Origin: Naegleria gruberi
Taxonomy: Eukaryota
Length of the DNA: 64,000 nucleotides
Assembly (NCBI GenBank): GCA_000004985.1
Contig: GG738879.1
Reading direction: 5' to 3' (one strand)
The notes beneath the pieces were generated by a model. That model saw nothing but the letters and a program-made list of their open reading frames with translations. It made no database searches and was not told the DNA's origin. Below are positions 3,101 to 64,000 of the stretch, piece by piece (the stretch's first letter is position 1; the number at the start of each line of letters is the position of its first letter). The translations under genes and the position numbers were made by a program.

Positions 3101-6100
3101 TGAGAGAATTTTGCAAATCGAAAGTAACTTTACCTCCCAAGAAAAAATTGATCAACAACATATCAACATTGAATTTTTAAAGAATATTGATATTAGCTTT
3201 TCACCAAATGTAATCTCTCTAGTACACCAATTAATCAAATATATAATACTTCCAGATTCAAACCTTCATGCTACAGCTGATCATATCGAAAAGTCAAAGA
3301 AAGTATTCCATCAGGATGTCCCAGAGGAATTATTAGAAGAGAAGAAAACTATTCCAAAATGGGATTTAAAGAAAATTATCTTTTCTGGTGGTGTTAAATG
3401 TGTTAATGTTAACGTTTTACAATCACTCTCTGTACCTAATATTATACCTGAGTCACCTTTACAAGGAACAGTTTCTGCATATTCTATCAAACTTTTTGCT
3501 ACTGATTTTGTAGCTTCTGGATCTGTAACTTTGAGAAAAGTGGAAGAGGAAAAGAAAGTAAGCTCTGAACTATTTTCTATTGAAGGTTTTGGAAAATGTC
3601 TAGAGGTTGGAGGTATTTCTCAGTGCTTAGATAGTAAAACATACCATTACAAAGGTATTGATCCTTCTGAGTTACCACTTTACTTCTTACAAAGGGTAAA
3701 TCTAATACCAGACGCACCAATAGTTGCAGCAATTCTTGTAGAGGACGTTCATTTCCAAGGTAAAAATAATATCAAGGAGGAAAACTCTCAGGGAAGATTT
3801 ACCTGTACAGTAGGAAAGCAAGGTTCTCTAGGATCAGGTGTTTCTGTACTCTTTACTCATGATATAATTGTAATTTCATATTCACTTGTAGAAGTGTGGA
3901 GAAAAGTTATCACAGATATGGTATTGAATGTTAGAAACTATTTGAGGTTACGACACGTCTATGATTTGCTACTACTTAGTCAAGTTTCAAAGAAAGCTGT
4001 ATCCAATACATCAGAAAACCTCTATGGAGTCTTGGAAAAAAAGCAAGCTTTGAAACATTTAAGAGCTTCTCTCTACTCTTTAACTTTTGCTGACTGTAGA
4101 AGTATTCAAAAGTTTATGCATTCTCATATAGGAATGGAAGTTGATTCAAAGGTAGAAATGAGAGCAATAAGAAATGAATACTCTGAATTGATAGAAGACG
4201 AAGACCATGCCCCTCAAATTCATACAAGCAAAACCTCTGTGAGATTGAGAACTGATATCTCTTTCCACTTGGAACGACTTGACCTTTCAGTTCATTCTGT
4301 TGATTTTAAAACAAAAGTTTACACAAAGAGTATTGCAAAGTTTAATGATATTTTAATGAGAGGAAAAGTAGAACATAGTTTGAATCCACTTTTCGAAACT
4401 GAGTACAAGAAATTTGAATCAGAAAATGCACAAAAGATAAGAGATATTTCTCTTATTTTATCAGTGAATTGTAGAGCCTTTAGTATTGATATTCACTCTC
4501 AAACTCTCATCCTTTTAACTTCAGCGCTTGGAGTATTCTTAATTGTTAAAAACAAACCTTTCATTAAAAAGTTGAGAGAAAAAGAAAAAAAGAACAAAAA
4601 CAAAAATCCTCAACAAAACCACGGAGAAATTAAGGAGATAACACACGATGTTTCTGCATCAACCCATGAACCAGAGGGTGAAAAAGAAATACCAGTGTAC
4701 CAAGAAAAAGTAGTCCTAAAACTGAATGTATTTACAAATGTTAATGTACAAAAAGCAACCGCTAGAGCATGGATGGACAAGAATAGTTTTGCAGAACTCA
4801 GTATTGATAAGTTTTCTCTACTCTTCAATCAACCTAAAAGCTCAGAAGAGCACATGCTAGCCATCAATAATGAGGAAAACAAGTCAGAGAAGAAGAGTAA
4901 TCTTAAAATGGTACATAGTAGTAATATTTCCATTAACAAAATTCTATTCCAGTTCAATTATACAACTCCTGAAAAAACAAACGAGAGAACAAAAGAGTTT
5001 ATTTCTCTCTTTGATGTTACTGTGAATGATATTAGACTTAATGAATTTTTATTCAAAGAAAAGGACTTGAATGTGCATGCCTATTTTGCATTTGATAAGC
5101 TTTTAATTAATCTTCCATTTGCTGATGTTTGGTCTGCATCTTCAGTACAATTTAGGCTGTTTGTGAAAACATGGTATGAAGCTATCAAAAGAAAGCCTAA
5201 TTTACCAAGCTTTGACATTTCAAAAGATTCTTCTCAACCAAAACAAGACCAAGAGCAACCCAAATCACCTATTAATTTCAATATTCCTGCAATTAATATT
5301 GTTCTTGATTTGAATGATATTTCTGCATACTTCAAGTTGGTAGATTCTTTCCAAATGAGATATAGTCTCACGAAACTAACAGCTCACTTCAAGCAAAATT
5401 CAAAACTTGACAATAACTTTATGGTACACTTGTTCCCGCATTCGTTTACTTTGAAATCAAAGAATGATGAAGAATTTCCAAACTCCAACAAGTGGGAAGG
5501 TCCAAGAAGCACAACACTTGGTTCGAATGAATTCAGAAAGATTTTCATTCTTCCTGAAGTTATTGTTTCTGGAAGTTTAGAAAATAAGGACAATAATGGT
5601 ACTACACAGAGAATACTTTCCACTTTAATAGCTATTGATTACTTTGAAAATGTGGTTACAAGTGATTTGTTAAATCATGTTATTGTCATTCAATCCGCTG
5701 TTACAAAAGAGATTAACAAGATCATTGAAAGCTTGAATAAGGGTGTTGAAGATTTAGAAAAAATCAAAAACGAATTACCAAAAGCTAAAAAGAATGTCAG
5801 ATCTCTCAATCTTTTCTTTGATGTAAAGCTTTTGTTTGAAGGAATTAGAATCACAGCTCTTGGACCATCTACAGCTCTGGTTGTTGACTCTGGATCAGTT
5901 AATGTTACAGCTTCCAACATTGAACATGTACGAGTCAAGATGTCACTCAAAGGTCTAAATATTAATATGGTAGACACCCACAACATCAAATGGGCAAGTA
6001 CAAGAAAGTACAACAATAGATATTCTGAAACAAGTGAGTGTTACCAGTGGGCCCAATTCCAATCAAACCTTCAAGTTCAAAACTTCCTGGATACTAAATT

Positions 6101-9100
6101 ATCTACAACAGACAAACAATCCACCAAGAATTTCACTCTCGATATTTCAAATACCCATCTATACCTTAGACCTGGATGTATAGAGCAAGCACTATTTTTA
6201 TTTAAAGATTACAAGCAATCAGTCCAAACTGTGTTTGAAAAGTTAAAAGAGGCTAGACAAAAGAATAGATCTGAAGCTTTAACTTCCCTCATCAAGACTG
6301 GAGAAGAATATTATTCATTATATTCTCATCAAATCAAAGAAAAAGTTGCTTCAGATGCTAGTACATTTATTAATTCAGGAGTGGTAAGAATTATGAATAC
6401 CACCCTATCTATGCCATTCGGAGATAATCCATACTTTGGATTCCTCACAAATGAGGGTCCTAATTTCAAACCTACATGCTGTTTACAAGTAATTATTCCA
6501 GCAGTTGGTCTCTCAACAATGTCAGAATCAGAAGATGATGTTAGTGCTACACTAGATACATTGATTTCAACAGGAAAAGACAGTGTTTCCAGTCAAAGAG
6601 TTGCCACTTGTAAGGTGAAGTCTATCAATATTTATCTCGATGAAAAACCCCTAAAGAAATCTAAATATTCCTTTAGTATGCCAACACTTCATGACTTTGA
6701 TCAAGCAAAAACAAAAGGAAAGATTGAGAAAATAATGATGAGCTTGAAGCTAAGAGTCACAACCAACGAAATCAATGGTTCTGGTGTTATTCATGTACCT
6801 GGTCCTGATTTGAATATTTCACCAGTTATAGTTAGAAGAGCTCTTGAACTTGGATATGATTGGTTTAATCCAAAACGAAAAATTTTCAATTCATATGTTG
6901 AATCTCCTAAGACCCAACCACAAAAACAAGACCAAGGTGTAATTACGCCAACGAAAGTAAGAGAACTCACAAAAAGAAAAATTTATTTCCTCATTACTGC
7001 CAACATTCAACCTGGTGTATTTAATTTAGTTCACAATATGACACCAAATACACTCGTTAGACGTAAAATTACAGACGAAACAGCTGTTGCAGTAGAAGGA
7101 AAATTGCCATCAGTTACAGTTACAGCCTTACACAAAAATCCAGGTACGAACACAAACCGATCTACAACACATATTCAAACAGGCATTCATTGGGATGGTG
7201 TTAAACTTCTTCCAAAATCATTATTCTTTGTATTGGAGGCAGTTCATGAGTTTAAACTTTGGTCAAAGGAAGAGCAAAAAAGAAGACAAAATTCTGCAAC
7301 CTACAAGTCAAAAGATCAAAATACTACCGAAATTGAGGATACCAAGGAGGTATTCAAACCTGTTGCATGGATGAGAATGCTTAAATCCGTTCTCCTTGTA
7401 CAAAGAATTTACAGAGGGTTTAGAGCAAGACAACTCGTTAAAAAACTCAGATCCGACAAGAACTTGAGAAGTACTTATCTTAAAAAAACAACAAAGAAGG
7501 AAATCAAAAAGAAAGAAAATGCTTCTCTCCAATCTGATTCCTTCAGTTTGCAATGTAGAATCAATCCTTTTAGAGTTGAACTTTCTTGCTTCCCTCTTGC
7601 AGAAACGGTTACTTGCTTTGAATTCACATCTCCATTCGATATTATTTTGAGTAGAACATTGAGAACTGTACAAACGGGTAATACCAAGGGTACTGCCATT
7701 TACCTTAACGTTTGCCTTTCTTGCCCTATTGCCTTGATAAGATGCTACCATCCTCTATCTCCTACACCATTTGTTATTTTGACAGTAGCAGGAATTATTG
7801 GAAACTTGGGCAGTGGATTTGGAAATTATCTTAGATCTGATGACACTCCGGTATATTCAGGAACTCTTCACGTAAAAAAGGTTTCAGTAGAGGTTAGTCT
7901 ACCACAAATGAACCACTTCTTTATTATGTACACAATTTGGATGGATAAATATGAAGAAGCCAGGAAGTCTCTCAAGATTGTAAGAGGAGATATCAAAACA
8001 ACACCTAAAACTCAATTAGTTGTTCTGACGAACGAAGAGAAAGAAGAGAAAGATCAAAAGAGAAAGAAAATTATTATGGAAGAAATATCCCTTGAATCTA
8101 CCTCATCTAAATTTGGTCAATTATTAATCTCCTCATTCGAAATTGTTAGTGATATGGGTCCAACTCTTGGTAAGCAGAAATTGTATGCTGAAGAAATTTC
8201 CTTGTTCTGCAAAGATAAGGGACGTATAGTTAATGAAATTGAAAGAGAACCATTACATATTGGTGGATACTTAGGAAAATTTGAGGGAACATTTGTTGGA
8301 AGACTTCAAGGTAATATATCGATGAATGGTATTGTAGTTGGGCTAAATAGAACATTCAAGAAAGGAGGTTCATCTCCTACGTATAAGGGATCTAGTGAAG
8401 TGTTTATTACAGCTTTACCAACTCTAATAGATTTGGAGCTCAACTCTGCCAAGATACTCAACATCTCACTCAACACATTATCCATTACATTCTGCGATAT
8501 ATTTGACTCTACAGATGGTAGACAATACCATGTGGAAACATCTGTAAACTCATCTGGAGCAACAGTTCGTCTTTCTAAAATATCTGCATCTGCTTTCATA
8601 TACGTATTCTATAAGATCAAAGAGTTAGCCACTGAAAGAAAGAAAGCTGCATTAGATACTCTCCAAGGATCTGTTAATTTTTATAATACAGAGGATGCCT
8701 CTGAAAAAGAAACAGAAGAAGAAAAATCATTCGAAATCAAATCTCTAAAAATTCAATCTCCAACGAAACAATTTTTATCACTCATTCCAATTGGTGATAT
8801 AGTTTTTAAGGGTGTAAATCTCAAAGTTTACCTTTATGAAAAGTTTACAGTTGAAAAAGATCAATTCGTTCCAGCAGGAGATTGGTTAGAGTTTGGAATG
8901 GATGACTACCAACTAAAGTTCAAACGTAAAGGACTTATGGAGGATAAATCTGTAGAAAGGTCACTGACATTGTTTTTAGCCAAAGTAGCTCTGGATAGAA
9001 TGACTACTCCAAACAAGCGATCATTTATTTTGGAGGTCCCTGGAGCTCACTTAACAATGAACTCATTACAAACAAGATCTATTCCAGATGTAATTAATTA

Positions 9101-57179: not shown

Positions 57180-60100
57180 TTAAAGATATTTGACTAATAA
57201 CTTGACATCATGAACTTGTTTGTTAATTCTATAAAATGGTCTTAATGTTCTACCCAATAATTCAAGTTGTTCATCTTCTCCTTGTTTGAAAATGAAATAC
57301 TTGTAACAATCAATTGGATTCCATTTCAAATTCAAATCACAAATTAATTGAGATTCTTCCAAGGTTGATTCATTGAATGACTTAGTAATTTCAACTTGTT
57401 CAATTGGTTTCAAGTTCAAATCTAACAATTTTTCACCAATATTCAAATAACCTAATTTCATTGCATAATAATCTTCTTCATTACTATCAATAATGGAATG
57501 TTCATCAGAAGGTGATGGAGTTGAATCACTTTGAATACAATCAATATAAATATTTGTAATTTCATCATCGAATTCAATAATATTATTCAAAGAATAAGTT
57601 TTTAATATCCAACCACCATTCATCATTTCAGATTTAACATTTTGATCCATTTTACTCAAATCAATTAAACCTAATTTTACAGTTTCAATTAATAAATGTA
57701 AAGAAGAATATTTTTCATTAAATTCATTACTATATTTAAATGCATATTGAATATTTGTTATATTATTATTTAAATTATTATTTAAATTATTTAATTTAAT
57801 ACTAGTTTTAAATAATTTAAATCTTGTTAATTTTACTTCATCTTGATTAAATTTTCCATAAAATTCTAAACAATTTCCACCTAAAAAGGAATCTAAATAA
57901 TTAAAATTCCAATTAATTGAATATTCTTGTCCAATATTTAAAATTTTATAATTTCTAAAATTAGGTAATAAATCTTGTTCAGAAATATCATTCCATTTTA
58001 ATACATTTTGATTATTTCCATAAATGTAATAATTTAATCCAACACCTGAATTAAAAAATGTTGAAAATAAATTTTTAATTAATTTTTCATTTAAATAATT
58101 TGAATTATTTTCATTTTTACTTTTTAATTTTAAATTTAAAGAACAATTTGAAATTCTTGATCCAAAATTTCCCGCCCAATTTTCAACATCCTTTCCACCA
58201 TGTTCCCAAATTATTGTTTTAATTAAATTTATATTTTTTAAAATAAAATTAAAATTAATACATTTCCAATTAGAGTTACAAATAATTTCACCAGAATTAA
58301 ATTCTTTAATAATTTTATCATTTTTATCTAAAAATTTAATTTTTAAATAAAATAAATCTTGACAATTTGGTTCAGTTCCTTTTATCCAACATTTTGCATT
58401 TAAAATTAAATTATTTAAATTATTATTATTTCCATTTATATCAATTTCATTTAATATAAAAGGTAAATTAATTAATTGTTCCATTTTTGACCAATTAAAA
58501 GATGAAATAAAAGATTTTGATTGATTAAAATCATTATTTAAAGATTTAATCCAATTTCCATTTATATTCCAACCTTCAAATTCATTTAATTGTCCATTTC
58601 CATTTTTTAATAATTCAATAATTTTATAATTTCCATTCCAAAATAAATTTTCAATATTTTCATATTCATTTCTAATTAAATTTAAATTTTCAATATTTTC
58701 TAAATTTGTAAAATTATTAAAATAATTTTCATAAATAAAACCTGGAGCAAATAAGGCAATAGATGTTTCATATTTGTTAATTTCATTTAATGCTATTTTA
58801 GTATTAAATTGTCCACCACCATATTGTCCTCTACCAAATATATCTATACCTGTAAATATTTTATATTTATTTAATTTTTTATTTAATTTTAAATTATTTT
58901 CTATTAAAATATTTTGTAATAGATTTAAATTATTTAAATTATTATTATTTTGTAAATTATTTTCTAATAAATTAATAAAATTATTTAAATTAATTAAAGA
59001 ATTATTTAACATTTCAGGTTTCCAATTATAATTTAAAAAAATTCCATCACTTTCATTTAAAAAAATTAAATTTTTTTCATTTAATTCATTTTGCCATTTT
59101 AATTCTCCATTTGGATAAATAATTGAATCATACCAAATTATTTTAGAATTTTTAATTAATTCTTTACATTTTAATTTTAAATATTTAATAAAATTAATTA
59201 ATTTTAAACATAAATCTTGATTTAAATTACATTCTATATTTAGAAACCATCCATCAAATTTATAATAAATTGCTAAATTTATCAAATAATCAGCAAATTG
59301 TTCATAATTTCCATTTAAAATTTTAGAAATTTCTTTACTTCCTTCATCCCATTCAAAAATTAAATTTCCTAAAACTAAAATTCCATTTTTATGTGCAATT
59401 TCAGTCCAACCAACAGGTGGTATTGTAATTCTATTTAATATTTAATATATTTAATATTATATAATATTTAATATTTAAAATAAATTTAAAAAATAAAAAA
59501 AACAAACCTTTCATGACTAAAATAAATAAAAATATCAACAAATTGCCAATAATTAAAATTAAAAGTTAAAAAATCATTTCCACTTTGAATAAATTTATCA
59601 TTTAAATATCCACCTTTCATATCATGACATAAAATTACTTTTTGTCTATTTTTAGTAAAATTATTTTTAAAATTAATTTTAGCAATATTTAAATCATCTT
59701 TAAAATTAAATTCTTGATTAATTGAATAAATTGGTTCTGAAATTATTTTAAATGGTTCATTAGATATTTCTAAAGATGGAAATGAATAATTAAAATTAAA
59801 ATTAAAAATTTCATTTGAAAAATAAAAAAATAAATTTTGTAAAATTCCTTTAAATGGTTTTGAATTTTCTAATTTTGGTGGAATTATAAATGGATTAAAA
59901 TTATTTATAATTGAATTTAAATTATTAAAATTTAATTCTTGTTCATATTCTAATTTATTATATTTAGTAATTTTAATTAATAATTTATTTTTAAATATTA
60001 ATTGAATATGATACCATTTATATAAATTAAAATTATAATTAATTATTAAATCATTAATTATTAATTTGTTATTTAAATATGTTGATAATTTAATTAATAA

Positions 60101-60343
60101 ATCTCCTTTTTTTAAAATTGTAAAATAATTTGAATTTAATAATTCTAAAAAGTAAATTGAAAAGGAAATATTTAATGTAGATTCAGAATTAGAAATTATT
60201 ATTGGTGCATGAATTTTTAAATTTTCATTATTATTTGTAATAAAATTACATGATGGAAGTAAATTAATTAAATTTGATGGTAATGAAAGTTGTAGATGTG
60301 GATCGGATAGATGATCACTATCATTACTAATACTTTCATTCAT
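57180..60343 (-). CDS. Cytosolic endo-beta-N-acetylglucosaminidase (GH85, ENGase) with very large Asn-rich insertions; 2 exons complement(57180..59430, 59508..60343)
   Basis: GH85 core ...KVILCHDMKGGYLNDKFIQSGNDF...NYWQFVDIFIYFSHER | ITIPPVGWTEIAHKNGILVLGNLIFEWDEG...FDGWFLNIE is split by a 77-nt GTTTGT...AATAG intron. About 1028 aa. Coding DNA is about 80% A+T with NNLNNL-type runs. Confidence 0.75.
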
Positions 60344-60576
60344 TTTATTAGTATTATTATTATTAACAACTTGGTGATGAATGTGAAGAGGTTCACCAGC
60401 AAGCAAATCGAGAGATGATGTAAATTTTTTAGGCTTGATCTTTCAATACAATTTCAGCCTTGTTTTCGTAAGTACCCGGCAGAGAAGATAAAATTCAGTG
60501 TCAAACATAATTGGCGCCAATCAAACTACAACAACAACAATAACACTAAGAAGATTAAAAACAAAGAATTATAAAA

Positions 60577-61038
60577 ATGGCTGACGAAGTAACACAAAAG
60601 AAATTGAAGGAGGCTTTCAGATTATTTGAACGTGAGGGGTGTATTGAAGTGGATGATTTAGGTATTATTATGAGACACTTGAATCTTAATCCTACGGAAA
60701 AACAAATTTCTGCATTAAAAACTGAAATGGGTCCAAATGTTATTGATTACAATGTTTTTGAAGCAGTGATGAGTAAGATTGTCCTTACATCAACCTATGA
60801 TGGTGCAACTTTAACTTTGGACACTGAAGATCAATTATTAAGAGCTTTTGAAATTTTGGATCCGGAGAGGAATGGTTTAATTCCTTCAGAGAAATTGGTT
60901 CAATTACTCAAATCACAAGGAGAACCAATGACTGAAGAGGAAATTAATGAATTCCTTCAATTTGCTCAATCCAAAGATTCAGCAATCATTCGATATGAAG
61001 AGTATGTCAATTTGTTATGTAGTCATTTAAAGAAATAA
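60577..61038 (+). CDS. Calmodulin-like EF-hand protein (153 aa)
   Basis: EF-hand pairs (EAFRLFEREGCIEVDDLG...; LRAFEILDPERNGLIPSEKL...); ATAAAAATGG start; ordinary composition, unlike neighbours. Confidence 0.75.
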   Translation: MADEVTQKKLKEAFRLFEREGCIEVDDLGIIMRHLNLNPTEKQISALKTEMGPNVIDYNVFEAVMSKIVLTSTYDGATLTLDTEDQLLRAFEILDPERNGLIPSEKLVQLLKSQGEPMTEEEINEFLQFAQSKDSAIIRYEEYVNLLCSHLKK

Positions 61039-61073
61039 ACTATTATTATGATTATAAAATTTTTCTAGATGAT

Positions 61074-61394
61074 TTATTGAGTTTCACGCAAACGTCTAAT
61101 AGTAGATCTAACAGTAGCAGCAGCGACAGTGTTCAAAGTCCAGGCACCACCAGCTTGAGTCTTATTACACTTCTTGCAGTTCCAGATACCAACAGCAACT
61201 CTCTTAACGCTGTGCTTACCACAGAATTGACAGAAGTGCTTTTGCTTCTTGGCAATTTCGTATTTCTTGGCTCTCTTTCTCAAGTTAGCACCATATCTAG
61301 TACCGAATTTACCGCAAATACCTGCTTTCTTTGTTCTCTTGGCCTGTTATTGGTGTTACTATTTAAAAAAATAATGAGTACGAAAACTTACCAT
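61074..61394 (-). CDS. RPL37A: 60S ribosomal protein L37a (eL43); 2 exons complement(61074..61343, 61392..61394)
   Basis: ATG | 48-nt intron (GTAAGT...AACAG) | [89 protein letters not shown]; zinc ribbon CxxC...CxxC intact. Intron-after-ATG arrangement is common for ribosomal-protein genes. Confidence 0.85.
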
Positions 61395-61720
61395 CGTTAT
61401 GTTTTTGACTTTTTTTTTCAACAAAAATTTTTAAAACTTGTGGTTGTCTAGGCACTACATACTTTACAATGAAAATAATCTTCAGCAGCTTCAAAAATAT
61501 TCATCAAACAAATGTGAAGCAGTCATAACGGACATTCAGATAATCGGATCACTCAAGGAAACCTCTTGTGCCATTCATCATATTAACTATTATGTGCCAT
61601 TCATCATAACAATTACACTCTTCTTAAAACAAGAACAATGTTACTTTGAATCAAAATTAATTTACTTTAAAAAGAATTCACAGAACAGAATAATACACTT
61701 AAACCATTCCTTTTCTTCTT

Positions 61721-61960
61721 CTACTTTTTCTTAAAGAATGAACTGATAGATTGTTGTTTTGTACCACTATTACTAGCCTTGACCACAGACTTTTTAGTTG
61801 TTGCTGCTGTTTCCTTCTTCTTTTTAGATGCATCAGTTGTTGTTGCTGCTGTTGGTGCTTCGTCATCCTTCATGGCATTATCATGATCTTCATCATCCGA
61901 AGATAATTCGTAGTACACTATCATCATCATCAACAACATCAACAATATCATCACTTCCAT
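61721..61960 (-). CDS. Small acidic/basic ORF ending in a canonical PIP box (QQSISSFFKKK*); overlaps the 5' end of the Cdc6/Orc1 ORF antisense
   Basis: Minus-strand ...SSDDEDHDNAMKDDEAPTAATTTDASKKKKETAATTKKSVVKASNSGTKQQSISSFFKKK* is the only protein-like reading of 61721..61900 (other frames are stop-ridden). Possible starts at 61960 or the internal Met at 61873. Confidence 0.35.
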   Translation of the reverse strand: MEVMILLMLLMMMIVYYELSSDDEDHDNAMKDDEAPTAATTTDASKKKKETAATTKKSVVKASNSGTKQQSISSFFKKK

Positions 61961-63354
61961 GTAGAGAAAAGGAAATTGAACAAATTAAAACATCACTATC
62001 AAATTGTATACAATTATCATGTCCTAAAACAATGTACATTGCAGGAGAACCAGGTACAGGTAAAACAGCCTGTATTAAACAAGTATTAAATGATTTGGAA
62101 AATGAATATAATAATACATCATCAAATAATAGTAATAATAATAATAATAATAGTAAAAGTAATAGTAATAATAATAATATACATAAATTTAAATATATAT
62201 TTATTAATGCAATGAAATTAAATCAACCATTTAAAGCCTTTGAAATTATCTATGATCAAGTTATTAAAAATTCCAATAATAAATTAAAAATCAAGCCTAA
62301 AAAAGCGCAATATAAACCACGTATAGAAAATTATTTTAAAAATTCCAAAACATTTAACAAACGTAAATATTTAATTATAATAATAGATGAAATGGATTTT
62401 TTTGTAACAAAAACATCTAATAATACTAAAAATATACATTTATTATATGATTTAGTTGATATAACAAGAGATTCTAATAGTAAATTATGTATAATTGGAA
62501 TTAGTAATACAGTTTCATTATTAGATCAATTAAATAGTAAAATTAAAAGTAGATTTGATGAAATGATAACTTTTTTTCCATATGAAAATGATCAAATTAG
62601 AACAATAATTGAAAGTAAAATATTAACAAATTATGATAATTATTTTGAAAAGGGTGCAATTAAAATGATTGGTTCTTTAATTGCTAGAAAAGCAGGTGAT
62701 ATACGTCAAGCTATTGATATTATTAAAAGATGTATTGAAATTTATTCTATAAAAGGAAATTTACAAGAAAAGAAAATTGATTCTTTATTTGTTAAATCAA
62801 TTGCAACTGATTTTACAGATAGATATCCAATTTCACAATTAAGTATTTATCATAAAATATTTTTATATTGTACTATTTTGGAATATGAAATGAAATTAAA
62901 AAATTTAAAAGAAAATCAAAATTTAAATAATTATGAATCAAATCCAAATAATTTATTATTTGAACGTATTGTAATGAGATTTCAAAATTTATTAGCAATG
63001 TTTGAAAATTCAATGAATATAAATAGTATTACTACTACTACTACCACTTTCAATAATAGTAATAATAATAATTTAAATAATAATAATAATAGTACTTCCA
63101 ATAATAATAGTAATAATTCAATGAATAATAATAATTTAAATAATTCCAATAATATAAAATATTCATTTATAAATCCAAGTTTAGATCAATTACAATTAAT
63201 AATGTTTACATTATGTGAATTGGGAATAATTTCAATTGATAATGATAAAAGAGAACGTTTACCAATTATACATTTTGAAACTGAATATCAATTATTATTA
63301 TTTAATTTAGAACAAGATGATGAAATGAAACCAATTATGAAATTAAATAAATAA
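61828..63354 (+). CDS. Cdc6/Orc1-family AAA+ replication initiator with Asn-rich insertions and C-terminal winged helix
   Basis: LPCREKE motif, Walker A GEPGTGKT, Walker B IIIIDEMD, sensor and C-terminal region; about 80% A+T with long (AAT)n Asn runs. The first 25 residues of the track ORF (MHQLLLLLLVLRHPSWHYHDLHH) look like antisense noise of the overlapping minus-strand ORF, so the true 5' end is unresolved. Confidence 0.7.
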   Translation: MHQLLLLLLVLRHPSWHYHDLHHPKIIRSTLSSSSTTSTISSLPCREKEIEQIKTSLSNCIQLSCPKTMYIAGEPGTGKTACIKQVLNDLENEYNNTSSNNSNNNNNNSKSNSNNNNIHKFKYIFINAMKLNQPFKAFEIIYDQVIKNSNNKLKIKPKKAQYKPRIENYFKNSKTFNKRKYLIIIIDEMDFFVTKTSNNTKNIHLLYDLVDITRDSNSKLCIIGISNTVSLLDQLNSKIKSRFDEMITFFPYENDQIRTIIESKILTNYDNYFEKGAIKMIGSLIARKAGDIRQAIDIIKRCIEIYSIKGNLQEKKIDSLFVKSIATDFTDRYPISQLSIYHKIFLYCTILEYEMKLKNLKENQNLNNYESNPNNLLFERIVMRFQNLLAMFENSMNINSITTTTTTFNNSNNNNLNNNNNSTSNNNSNNSMNNNNLNNSNNIKYSFINPSLDQLQLIMFTLCELGIISIDNDKRERLPIIHFETEYQLLLFNLEQDDEMKPIMKLNK

Positions 63355-63405: not shown

Positions 63406-64000
63406 TTATAATTCATCTTTATTTTCTAAAGCAATAATTGAATTTGTCTCATCAGATAATTTCCATTCCATATTATTTTTATCATTTTTATCATTTTTAT
63501 CATTTCCATTATTTTCATTTTCATTATTTTCATTTCCATTTTCATTATTATTTAAATTAGATGAAGGTAATAAAAGTTTAAAAGGAATGTCTAAACATAA
63601 ATGTTCAATCATTTCTCTTCTTTGTGGATCATGTTCTAATTGTTGATATTTATAAATTCTTAAAGTAGCTTCATGTGTACCATTTAAAATGGAATATAAA
63701 GGTCTTTCTATATTAATATGATATGTTTTGTTTAAATTTATAATTGGACAATTTGAATCTTGTAATTTACAATTAATTTCTAAATTATTTTTAGATTGGT
63801 TTCCTAAAAAAGAACCACAACAAATATCATATGGTCCTTTATATTTAATTTTTTGACCTGTTTCTTCATGCCATAATTCTAAATTATAAAATAAATGATT
63901 AGTTTCCATAATTGGTTCATTAAATTTAATATCCATTTCAATTTTAACACCAGGTGTATTATATCTAGTAGGTACAATTGTTAAATGTGAAGTAATTAAT
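63406..64000 (-). CDS. Hypothetical protein, 3' part only (gene continues beyond window end); very A+T-rich with N/E/K-rich tail
   Basis: Minus-strand reading stays open through 64000 (...YNTPGVKIEMDIKFNEPIMETNHLFYNLELWHEETGQKIKYKGPYDICCG...). Confidence 0.45.
   Translation of the reverse strand, partial: LITSHLTIVPTRYNTPGVKIEMDIKFNEPIMETNHLFYNLELWHEETGQKIKYKGPYDICCGSFLGNQSKNNLEINCKLQDSNCPIINLNKTYHINIERPLYSILNGTHEATLRIYKYQQLEHDPQRREMIEHLCLDIPFKLLLPSSNLNNNENGNENNENENNGNDKNDKNDKNNMEWKLSDETNSIIALENKDEL

Follow-up and report, generated by a model that had tools for sequence, protein, structure and literature searches.

A PIP-box reading frame antisense to ORC1/CDC6 in Naegleria gruberi as the probable remnant of a POLD3 gene

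Proteins of the POLD3/Cdc27/Pol32 family have a C-terminal PCNA-binding tail, in which a canonical PCNA-interacting protein (PIP) box stands at the extreme C-terminus together with basic residues. A tail of this kind is encoded on the minus strand of Naegleria gruberi NEG-M contig GG738879.1 (assembly GCA_000004985.1), in a stretch of 64,000 nucleotides referred to here as the window, where it overlaps the 5' end of the gene annotated as ORC1/CDC6. As in human POLD3/p66-p68, Schizosaccharomyces pombe Cdc27 and Saccharomyces cerevisiae Pol32, the PIP box of the N. gruberi sequence is C-terminal, with Lys/Arg after it and an acidic-then-basic low-complexity linker before it. Unlike complete members of the family, the N. 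gruberi sequence consists of the last 62 codons only, and the N-terminal domain and central region are absent from the window.

The locus can also be compared with three other kinds of system. Like truncated gene relics and unitary pseudogenes, it is consistent with a single deletion that took the 5' part of a gene, the promoter and part of a neighbour, and copies of the 11-mer TCTTCATCATC lie near the edges of the missing segment in a related Naegleria. Unlike such relics, the remnant shows no decay, and hence the event was either very recent or not biological. If translated, the remnant would give a short disordered peptide with the PIP motif as its sole recognisable feature, as in PCLAF/PAF15, the C-terminus of p21 and S. 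pombe Spd1, but it has no homology to these proteins and is not conserved as a short gene. As in annotation-derived N-terminal extensions and antisense overprinting, the first 28 codons of the annotated CDC6 are read opposite POLD3 coding sequence and are not conserved; unlike gradual overprinting, the overlap here would have come from a deletion joining two genes head-on.

The minus-strand open reading frame (ORF) runs from an ATG at 61960 to a TAG stop codon at 61721-61723 and, as read from the sequence and the ORF list, encodes 79 amino acids (MEVMILLMLLMMMIVYYELSSDDEDHDNAMKDDEAPTAATTTDASKKKKETAATTKKSVVKASNSGTKQQSISSFFKKK), the last of which are TKQQSISSFFKKK. An earlier note, made from the sequence alone, had reported a small minus-strand ORF with a C-terminal PIP box here, and both were found. 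The box, QQSISSFF (61733-61756, minus strand), read directly, conforms to the consensus Qxx[ILM]xx[FY][FY], and the basic tail KKK (61724-61732) and the stop come after it. The statement that all other frames are full of stops went too far, as two plus-strand frames have only two stops each in 61721-61960. Taken alone, the motif would be weak evidence. A six-frame translation of the window has 21 matches to the consensus; this one, and no other, lies near the end of a run of 50 or more codons without a stop.

The 79-residue product matches Pfam family PF09507 (CDC27) at profile positions 395-443 of 443 (E 1e-5), with a score of 25.7 bits against a gathering cut-off of 24.5 bits. For comparison, the corresponding loci of N. 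lovaniensis (L001), N. fowleri (L002) and two environmental Naegleria were used, one from a Joint Genome Institute (JGI) metagenome (L003) and one from an ENA metagenome (L004, which encodes the protein P0013). All four have a full-length POLD3 of 414-428 amino acids, the last ~60 residues of which correspond to the ORF peptide. When the four proteins were searched against the window with tblastn, only their last ~58-69 residues matched, at 61724-61909 (to 61930 with low-complexity slack), and the tail of the ORF is 43-57% identical to the POLD3 tails of the four other Naegleria. As delimited by Pfam, tblastn and alignment, the remnant comprises the last 62 codons (ELSSDDED...TKQQSISSFFKKK) and the TAG stop, at 61721-61909 on the minus strand.

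The tails share the pattern ELSSDD..M.D...KKK..KSVV.A..SG.KQ.SI.SFFKKK followed by a stop codon. The aligned C-termini, each ending at the stop, read ELSSDDEDHDNAMKDDE...KKKKETAATTKKSVVKASNSGTKQQSISSFFKKK in N. gruberi, ELSSDDENAMQDEE...KSNKSVVSANPHSGPKQTSIGSFFKKK in N. lovaniensis and ELSSDDDEEMKD...KKKKEPASKQKAVTKASASGTKQQSISSFFKKK in L004, and the PIP box is found at the same C-terminal position in N. lovaniensis, N. fowleri and L004, while in L003 it is cut by the contig end. The terminal segment SGTKQQSISSFFKKK, with its stop, is identical in L004/P0013, and over the last 16 codons there are four synonymous and no non-synonymous differences; along the N. gruberi tail, codon changes relative to L004 are mostly synonymous. 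Conservation runs past the stop codon: in blastn, window positions 61687-61826 are 76% identical to L004, which includes the first ~35 nt of the POLD3 3' untranslated region (3'UTR; 61687-61720, minus strand). A profile of the full-length Naegleria POLD3 proteins matched human POLD3 in the PDB over its N-terminal domain (3e0j_B, E 2e-22), and hence the family assignment of the orthologues is secure.

The remnant thus has a profile score above threshold, the C-terminal PIP box with basic residues and the position expected of an orthologue, whereas the POLD2/p50-binding N-terminal domain, which the orthologues have, was not found in the 64-kb window by tblastn with the four Naegleria proteins. 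This makes it a fragment of a POLD3 family member and not a complete one. The orthology, as judged by Pfam and the Naegleria tail alignments, also makes the ORF more than a chance frame. We regard it as close to certain from these comparisons that the PIP-box ORF is the tail of POLD3, whether the loss of the remainder is real or artefactual. On sequence grounds, the remnant is a truncated gene of a known family, with a PIP box inherited from POLD3. An example of a tryptic peptide from it is DDEAPTAATTTDASK.

Searches with the tail itself added little. Searched on its own against PDB sequences, the tail had no match, and PIP peptides fall under the 20-residue floor of that search. A word-index homology search with the 62-residue tail returned nothing and is unreliable, as it missed P0013 though 11 five-residue words are shared. 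No usable loci were obtained from JGI metagenome contigs with a degenerate DNA pattern of the tail and the POLD3 profile, and nothing relevant was found in the literature on Naegleria with POLD3 or Pol32.

The position of the remnant agrees with its identity. N. lovaniensis and N. fowleri have their genes in the order GH85 glycosidase, EF-hand (plus strand), RPL37a (minus), a gene with the Pfam CDC27 domain (minus; 428 amino acids in N. lovaniensis and 426 in N. fowleri) and ORC1/CDC6 (plus), and the remnant likewise lies on the minus strand between RPL37a and ORC1/CDC6. tblastn of every window gene against these two loci showed strict collinearity, in the order GH85, EF-hand, RPL37a, POLD3, CDC6 and the next gene. 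The divergent POLD3-CDC6 pair is also present in L003 and L004, with start codons ~100 bp apart. The spacer of this pair is ~100-230 bp in three of the relatives and ~1.1 kb in N. fowleri, where an additional gene without a Pfam match, called on the plus strand at L002 positions 5044-5808 and encoding 254 amino acids, widens it.

The extent of the missing segment was defined by blastn against L004. Window positions 61687-61826 correspond to positions 24-155 of the reverse-complemented L004 contig, and 61887-62063 to positions 1420-1603. About 1.24 kb of L004 is without a counterpart, namely POLD3 codons 1 to ~370 with an intron, an intergenic promoter region of ~100 bp, and Cdc6 codons 1 to ~30. 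Around 85% of POLD3 is missing from the window sequence. The window has no runs of N, and there is no gap at the junction. As judged by the three-way comparison with L004 and by the limits of the tblastn matches, the junction lies at 61909-61912: POLD3 homology on the minus strand stops at 61909, and Cdc6 homology on the plus strand begins at ~61912. Because both sides are rich in TCA/ATC, the position is uncertain to ~61930.

In L004, TCTTCATCATC is found at both edges of the segment as a direct repeat, the edges being ~1.24 kb apart. One copy is antisense of the POLD3 codons for 'SSDDDE' and the other is sense of Cdc6 poly-Ser codons. At the window junction, the unique sequence CGAAGATAATTCGTAGTACACT lies between repeat remnants of 11-12 nt, an arrangement that speaks for physical loss of sequence from a DNA molecule, either genomic or cloned, and against repeats simply collapsed by the assembler. 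A contig from ENA metagenome ERZ929261 (L005) is 97% identical to window positions 60053-61825, and its POLD3 tail is identical over 105 nt; it ends 85 bp before the junction, and no independent N. gruberi sequence spanning the junction was found. A profile search of proteins recovered POLD3 from N. lovaniensis, N. fowleri and L004 and none from N. gruberi, and the consecutive N. gruberi accessions EFC42489 (RPS13), EFC42490 (EF-hand) and EFC42491 (Cdc6) leave no entry between them.

The other side of the junction is ORC1/CDC6. The plus-strand ORF at 61828-63354 encodes 508 amino acids that are 100% identical to XP_002675235.1/EFC42491.1, 'ORC1/CDC6 [Naegleria gruberi]', with Pfam matches to AAA (1.4e-12) and the Cdc6-ORC-like lid (2.8e-7). 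This frame opens at 61828, as the earlier note had it; the ATG there comes right after an in-frame TAG, and the LPCRE motif starts at 61954. The part that is orthologous to other Cdc6 proteins extends from about native codon 31 (61912-63354, plus strand), as tblastn homology starts at ~61912 (STLSSSSTTSTISSLPCRE...), and includes LPCRE, Walker A (GEPGTGKT), Walker B and the lid domain. It is 52-60% identical to the orthologues of other Naegleria, and the catalytic motifs are invariant across five aligned orthologues.

Codons 1-28 of the annotated gene (MHQLLLLLLVLRHPSWHYHDLHHPKIIR; 61828-61911, plus strand), which are included in XP_002675235.1/EFC42491.1, are the antisense of the POLD3 tail. 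The suspicion that the first ~25 residues are antisense noise is thereby borne out, since these residues are the reverse strand of the POLD3 tail and align with none of the four orthologues. A native Cdc6 N-terminus is Ser-rich, begins MIK... or MLK... (MIK... in three Naegleria orthologues) and is contiguous with LPCRE; residues 1-28 of the 508-residue ORF do not have this form. There is no in-frame ATG between 61828 and Met69, three residues ahead of Walker A, and hence gene prediction took 61828. The alternative raised earlier, that Cdc6 has a different 5' exon structure, did not hold. The N-termini of the orthologues are contiguous with LPCRE without an intron before it, inspection of 61400-61910 by eye showed no canonical GTAAGT-type donor, and tblastn found no native Cdc6 N-terminus anywhere in the 64-kb window; an upstream Cdc6 exon was consequently rejected. 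A conserved Cdc6 29-mer gave no match when searched against viral contigs, and exact look-ups of the 508-residue and 79-residue ORFs and of the EF-hand neighbour gave none in a contig index that does not include the N. gruberi assembly.

The two reading frames do overlap, as had been noted, although not head-to-tail: the 5' ends of divergent ORFs meet, so the arrangement is head-to-head. The 5' extension of the minus-strand ORF (MEVMILLMLLMMMIVYY; 61910-61960, 17 codons) lies opposite Cdc6 sequence conserved in L004 and has no counterpart in any POLD3 orthologue; it reads the Ser/Thr-rich codons of Cdc6, and those for P-C in LPCRE, in antisense.

The explanation that we favour, on balance and with some reserve, is that the body of POLD3 was lost by a genomic deletion of ~1.24 kb in at least one haplotype. 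In the ancestral state, POLD3 and ORC1/CDC6 would have been divergent neighbours with a promoter region between them. In the N. gruberi NEG-M lineage, one deletion of ~1.24 kb would then have taken POLD3 codons 1 to ~370, with the POLD2-binding N-terminal domain and the intron, the shared promoter and the first ~30 codons of CDC6. Its ends would lie in short TCA/ATC repeats, antisense of the acidic 'SSDDE' codons of POLD3 on one side and sense of the poly-Ser/Thr codons of Cdc6 on the other, a location suggestive of end-joining or slippage with scant microhomology. As it happens, the fusion would have left the Cdc6 frame open through 28 antisense POLD3-tail codons up to the ATG at 61828, and the POLD3 frame open for 17 codons into antisense Cdc6 up to the ATG at 61960. 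The overlap on two strands would thus be a by-product of the fusion of two genes by the loss. As the tail shows no decay, the genomic loss would be recent, and the remnant is presumably non-functional. RPL37a and Cdc6 are now head-to-head, 433 bp apart, and Cdc6, if still active, would be transcribed from the RPL37a side.

Observations that speak for a real event are that the deposited sequence and the protein XP_002675235.1 both carry the junction, that there is no gap at it, that the repeats are too short to collapse, and that no N. gruberi POLD3 protein was found. Several points weigh against it. The tail has an intact frame and a perfect PIP box with none of the decay of a pseudogene, which fits an artefact and a very recent event equally. 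The loss of most of POLD3, along with the start and promoter of the only ORC1/CDC6 detected, should be costly for a free-living cell. The junction has no second witness among the N. gruberi sequences, L005 stopping short of it, and the negatives from protein databases are imperfect, given the failure of the word-index search on P0013. The same identity of the ORF is also compatible with a second, less probable though serious, explanation, in which the 2010 Sanger assembly alone lacks the 1.24 kb, POLD3 and CDC6 being intact in the organism. The consensus would have come from a deleted or chimeric Escherichia coli clone, from a region hard to clone beside extremely AT-rich DNA. The perfect preservation of the tail, with the PIP box and 3'UTR conserved with L004 and 105 nt identical with L005, would then be expected, as would a loss that strikes two replication genes together. 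The junction also lies within ~180 bp of DNA with 9-20% guanine plus cytosine (GC), and the short direct repeats at the edges are of the type used in RecA-independent deletion. Such AT-rich sequence is known to be unstable in plasmid libraries. Against an artefact stand the lack of a gap or N run at the junction, the unique sequence there and the 11-12-nt repeats, too short for assembler collapse, and the failure to find the body of POLD3 on another N. gruberi contig or in another protein. Between them, the genomic deletion, held to be somewhat probable, and the artefact, held to be possible, take up nearly all of our confidence, and the remaining readings share the little that is left.

The earlier note had proposed a PCNA-binding micro-protein encoded antisense to the Cdc6 5' region, and the tail could be expressed alone after truncation, as a PCNA-binding PIP-box peptide of 50-79 amino acids starting at Met 61960 or Met 61871-61873. 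The frame is open with an in-frame ATG, it ends in a canonical PIP box with a basic tail, and it is conserved relative to L004 mainly through synonymous change. This conservation is explained without a micro-protein, as the tail is part of a full-length POLD3 in each of the four relatives and is in none of them a short stand-alone ORF; the conserved 50-80-residue ORF that had been anticipated next to CDC6 in other genomes was looked for, and full-length POLD3 was found in its place. Met 61871-61873 is an ancestral internal residue, invariant in four aligned POLD3 tail sequences and present in L004 too, and not a new start, and the 17-residue N-terminal extension is antisense Cdc6 without a homologue. 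The promoter of the gene is deleted, and neither the 79-residue nor the 50-residue sequence is present in a collection of 15 billion proteins. A stand-alone peptide is hence thought very unlikely. The same low standing is given to the fuller scenario in which the deletion is fixed in NEG-M, the POLD3 body has just been lost, the tail is translated as a free PCNA-binding peptide, and ORC1/CDC6 has acquired a new N-terminus read from antisense, probably under the RPL37a promoter. Slightly less credible still is the reading of the ORF as the terminal exon of an intact POLD3 with its upstream exons elsewhere, whether CDC6 lies in a giant intron, the exons are trans-spliced or a contig is misplaced. 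An AG does occur on the minus strand just upstream of the homologous part (…gatgatag followed by TG TAC TAC GAA), and no other N. gruberi POLD3 was found. N. lovaniensis, N. fowleri and L004, however, have no intron here, their ORFs running from MLYEY to the stop without a break, and in L003, too, the frame stays open to the end of the contig. The minus strand opposite CDC6 has only short noise ORFs, the next minus-strand gene (63406-63936) is the syntenic neighbour found in other species, and the search for the POLD3 N-terminal domain in the window was negative. As for a chance frame, that is, antisense noise of the Cdc6 5' region with a fortuitous PIP-like motif, the consensus is indeed frequent in sequence of this composition, but the significant family and orthologue matches, exact synteny and conserved 3'UTR refute it, and its probability is negligible.

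N. gruberi NEG-M is a standard reference proteome for reconstruction of the ancestral eukaryotic replication machinery. No POLD3 entry was found in the proteome as deposited, and the N-terminus of its ORC1/CDC6 entry, XP_002675235.1, derives from antisense sequence. By the evidence of the remnant, POLD3 was at this locus until very recently, or is still there if the assembly is wrong, so a scored 'absence' of N. gruberi POLD3 should not be taken as an ancient loss. What looked like a new PCNA partner antisense to CDC6 can also be set aside as a false lead. Should the deletion be real, the locus offers a natural experiment on the dispensability of POLD3 and of the N-terminal region of Cdc6.

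RPL37a (61074-61394, minus strand) adjoins the remnant downstream, in the same position as in L001 and L002, and its exon is 93% identical to that of N. lovaniensis. Exon 2 is at 61074-61343 and exon 1, which is the ATG alone, at 61392-61394; the 48-nt intron between them (61344-61391) was read from the sequence. The protein collection does not contain the exact 90-residue product, and the N. gruberi proteins on either side have consecutive accessions; hence RPL37a is apparently unannotated in the reference. Downstream of CDC6, the gene at 63406-63936 (minus strand) encodes a C-terminal KDEL of endoplasmic reticulum-retention type, belongs to no Pfam family and runs off the end of the window; it is syntenic with genes of 364-366 amino acids in N. 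fowleri and N. lovaniensis. Within CDC6 itself, an intron directly after the Walker A codons (GEPGTGK/T) is present in N. lovaniensis (L001 ~6215-6390) and in L004 (reverse strand, ~1600), and N. gruberi (window ~62064-62070) and L003 read straight through without it. At ~1500 on the L004 reverse strand, the Cys codon of LPCRE is TG for TGT, and the resulting Cdc6 frameshift is probably a metagenome assembly or sequencing error.

The remnant lies in a 1.7-kb island of normal GC content (~60300-62090, GC ~0.33) between two blocks with GC of 0.09-0.25. The left block (~57700-60300) holds the GH85 gene, and the right block, from ~62090 to the window end at 64000, holds most of Cdc6 and the next gene. 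Both are sharply bounded, and the first 57 kb of the window has a flat GC of 0.28-0.36. The ORFs in the AT-rich blocks are long, intact and rich in Asn, Ile and Lys, with poly-Asn inserts. For Cdc6, GC at third codon positions is 0.00-0.17 in N. gruberi versus 0.20-0.53 in L003; the N. gruberi protein has 15% Asn and 47% FYMINK residues, compared with 34-36% FYMINK in other Naegleria. No such AT-richness is seen at the orthologous loci of N. lovaniensis, N. fowleri and L003. The AT-rich 5' end of the GH85 gene recurs in L005, so this composition is biological and does not stem from a single assembly. Literature searches on AT-rich nuclear regions in N. gruberi turned up no account of islands of this kind. 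An origin by fungal-type repeat-induced point mutation (RIP) was rejected, as TpA/ApT of 0.78-0.81 and (CpA+TpG)/(ApC+GpT) of 1.6-2.2 give no RIP signature and long intact ORFs persist; the observed/expected ratio of CpG in the first AT-rich block is 0.07. The GH85/ENGase-like gene (minus strand) is split into ORFs at 59486-60406 and 57180-59285, with ~200 bp between them (59285-59486). In N. lovaniensis the orthologue has a single unbroken frame of over 1050 codons, and the split in N. gruberi may be an intron or a frameshift.

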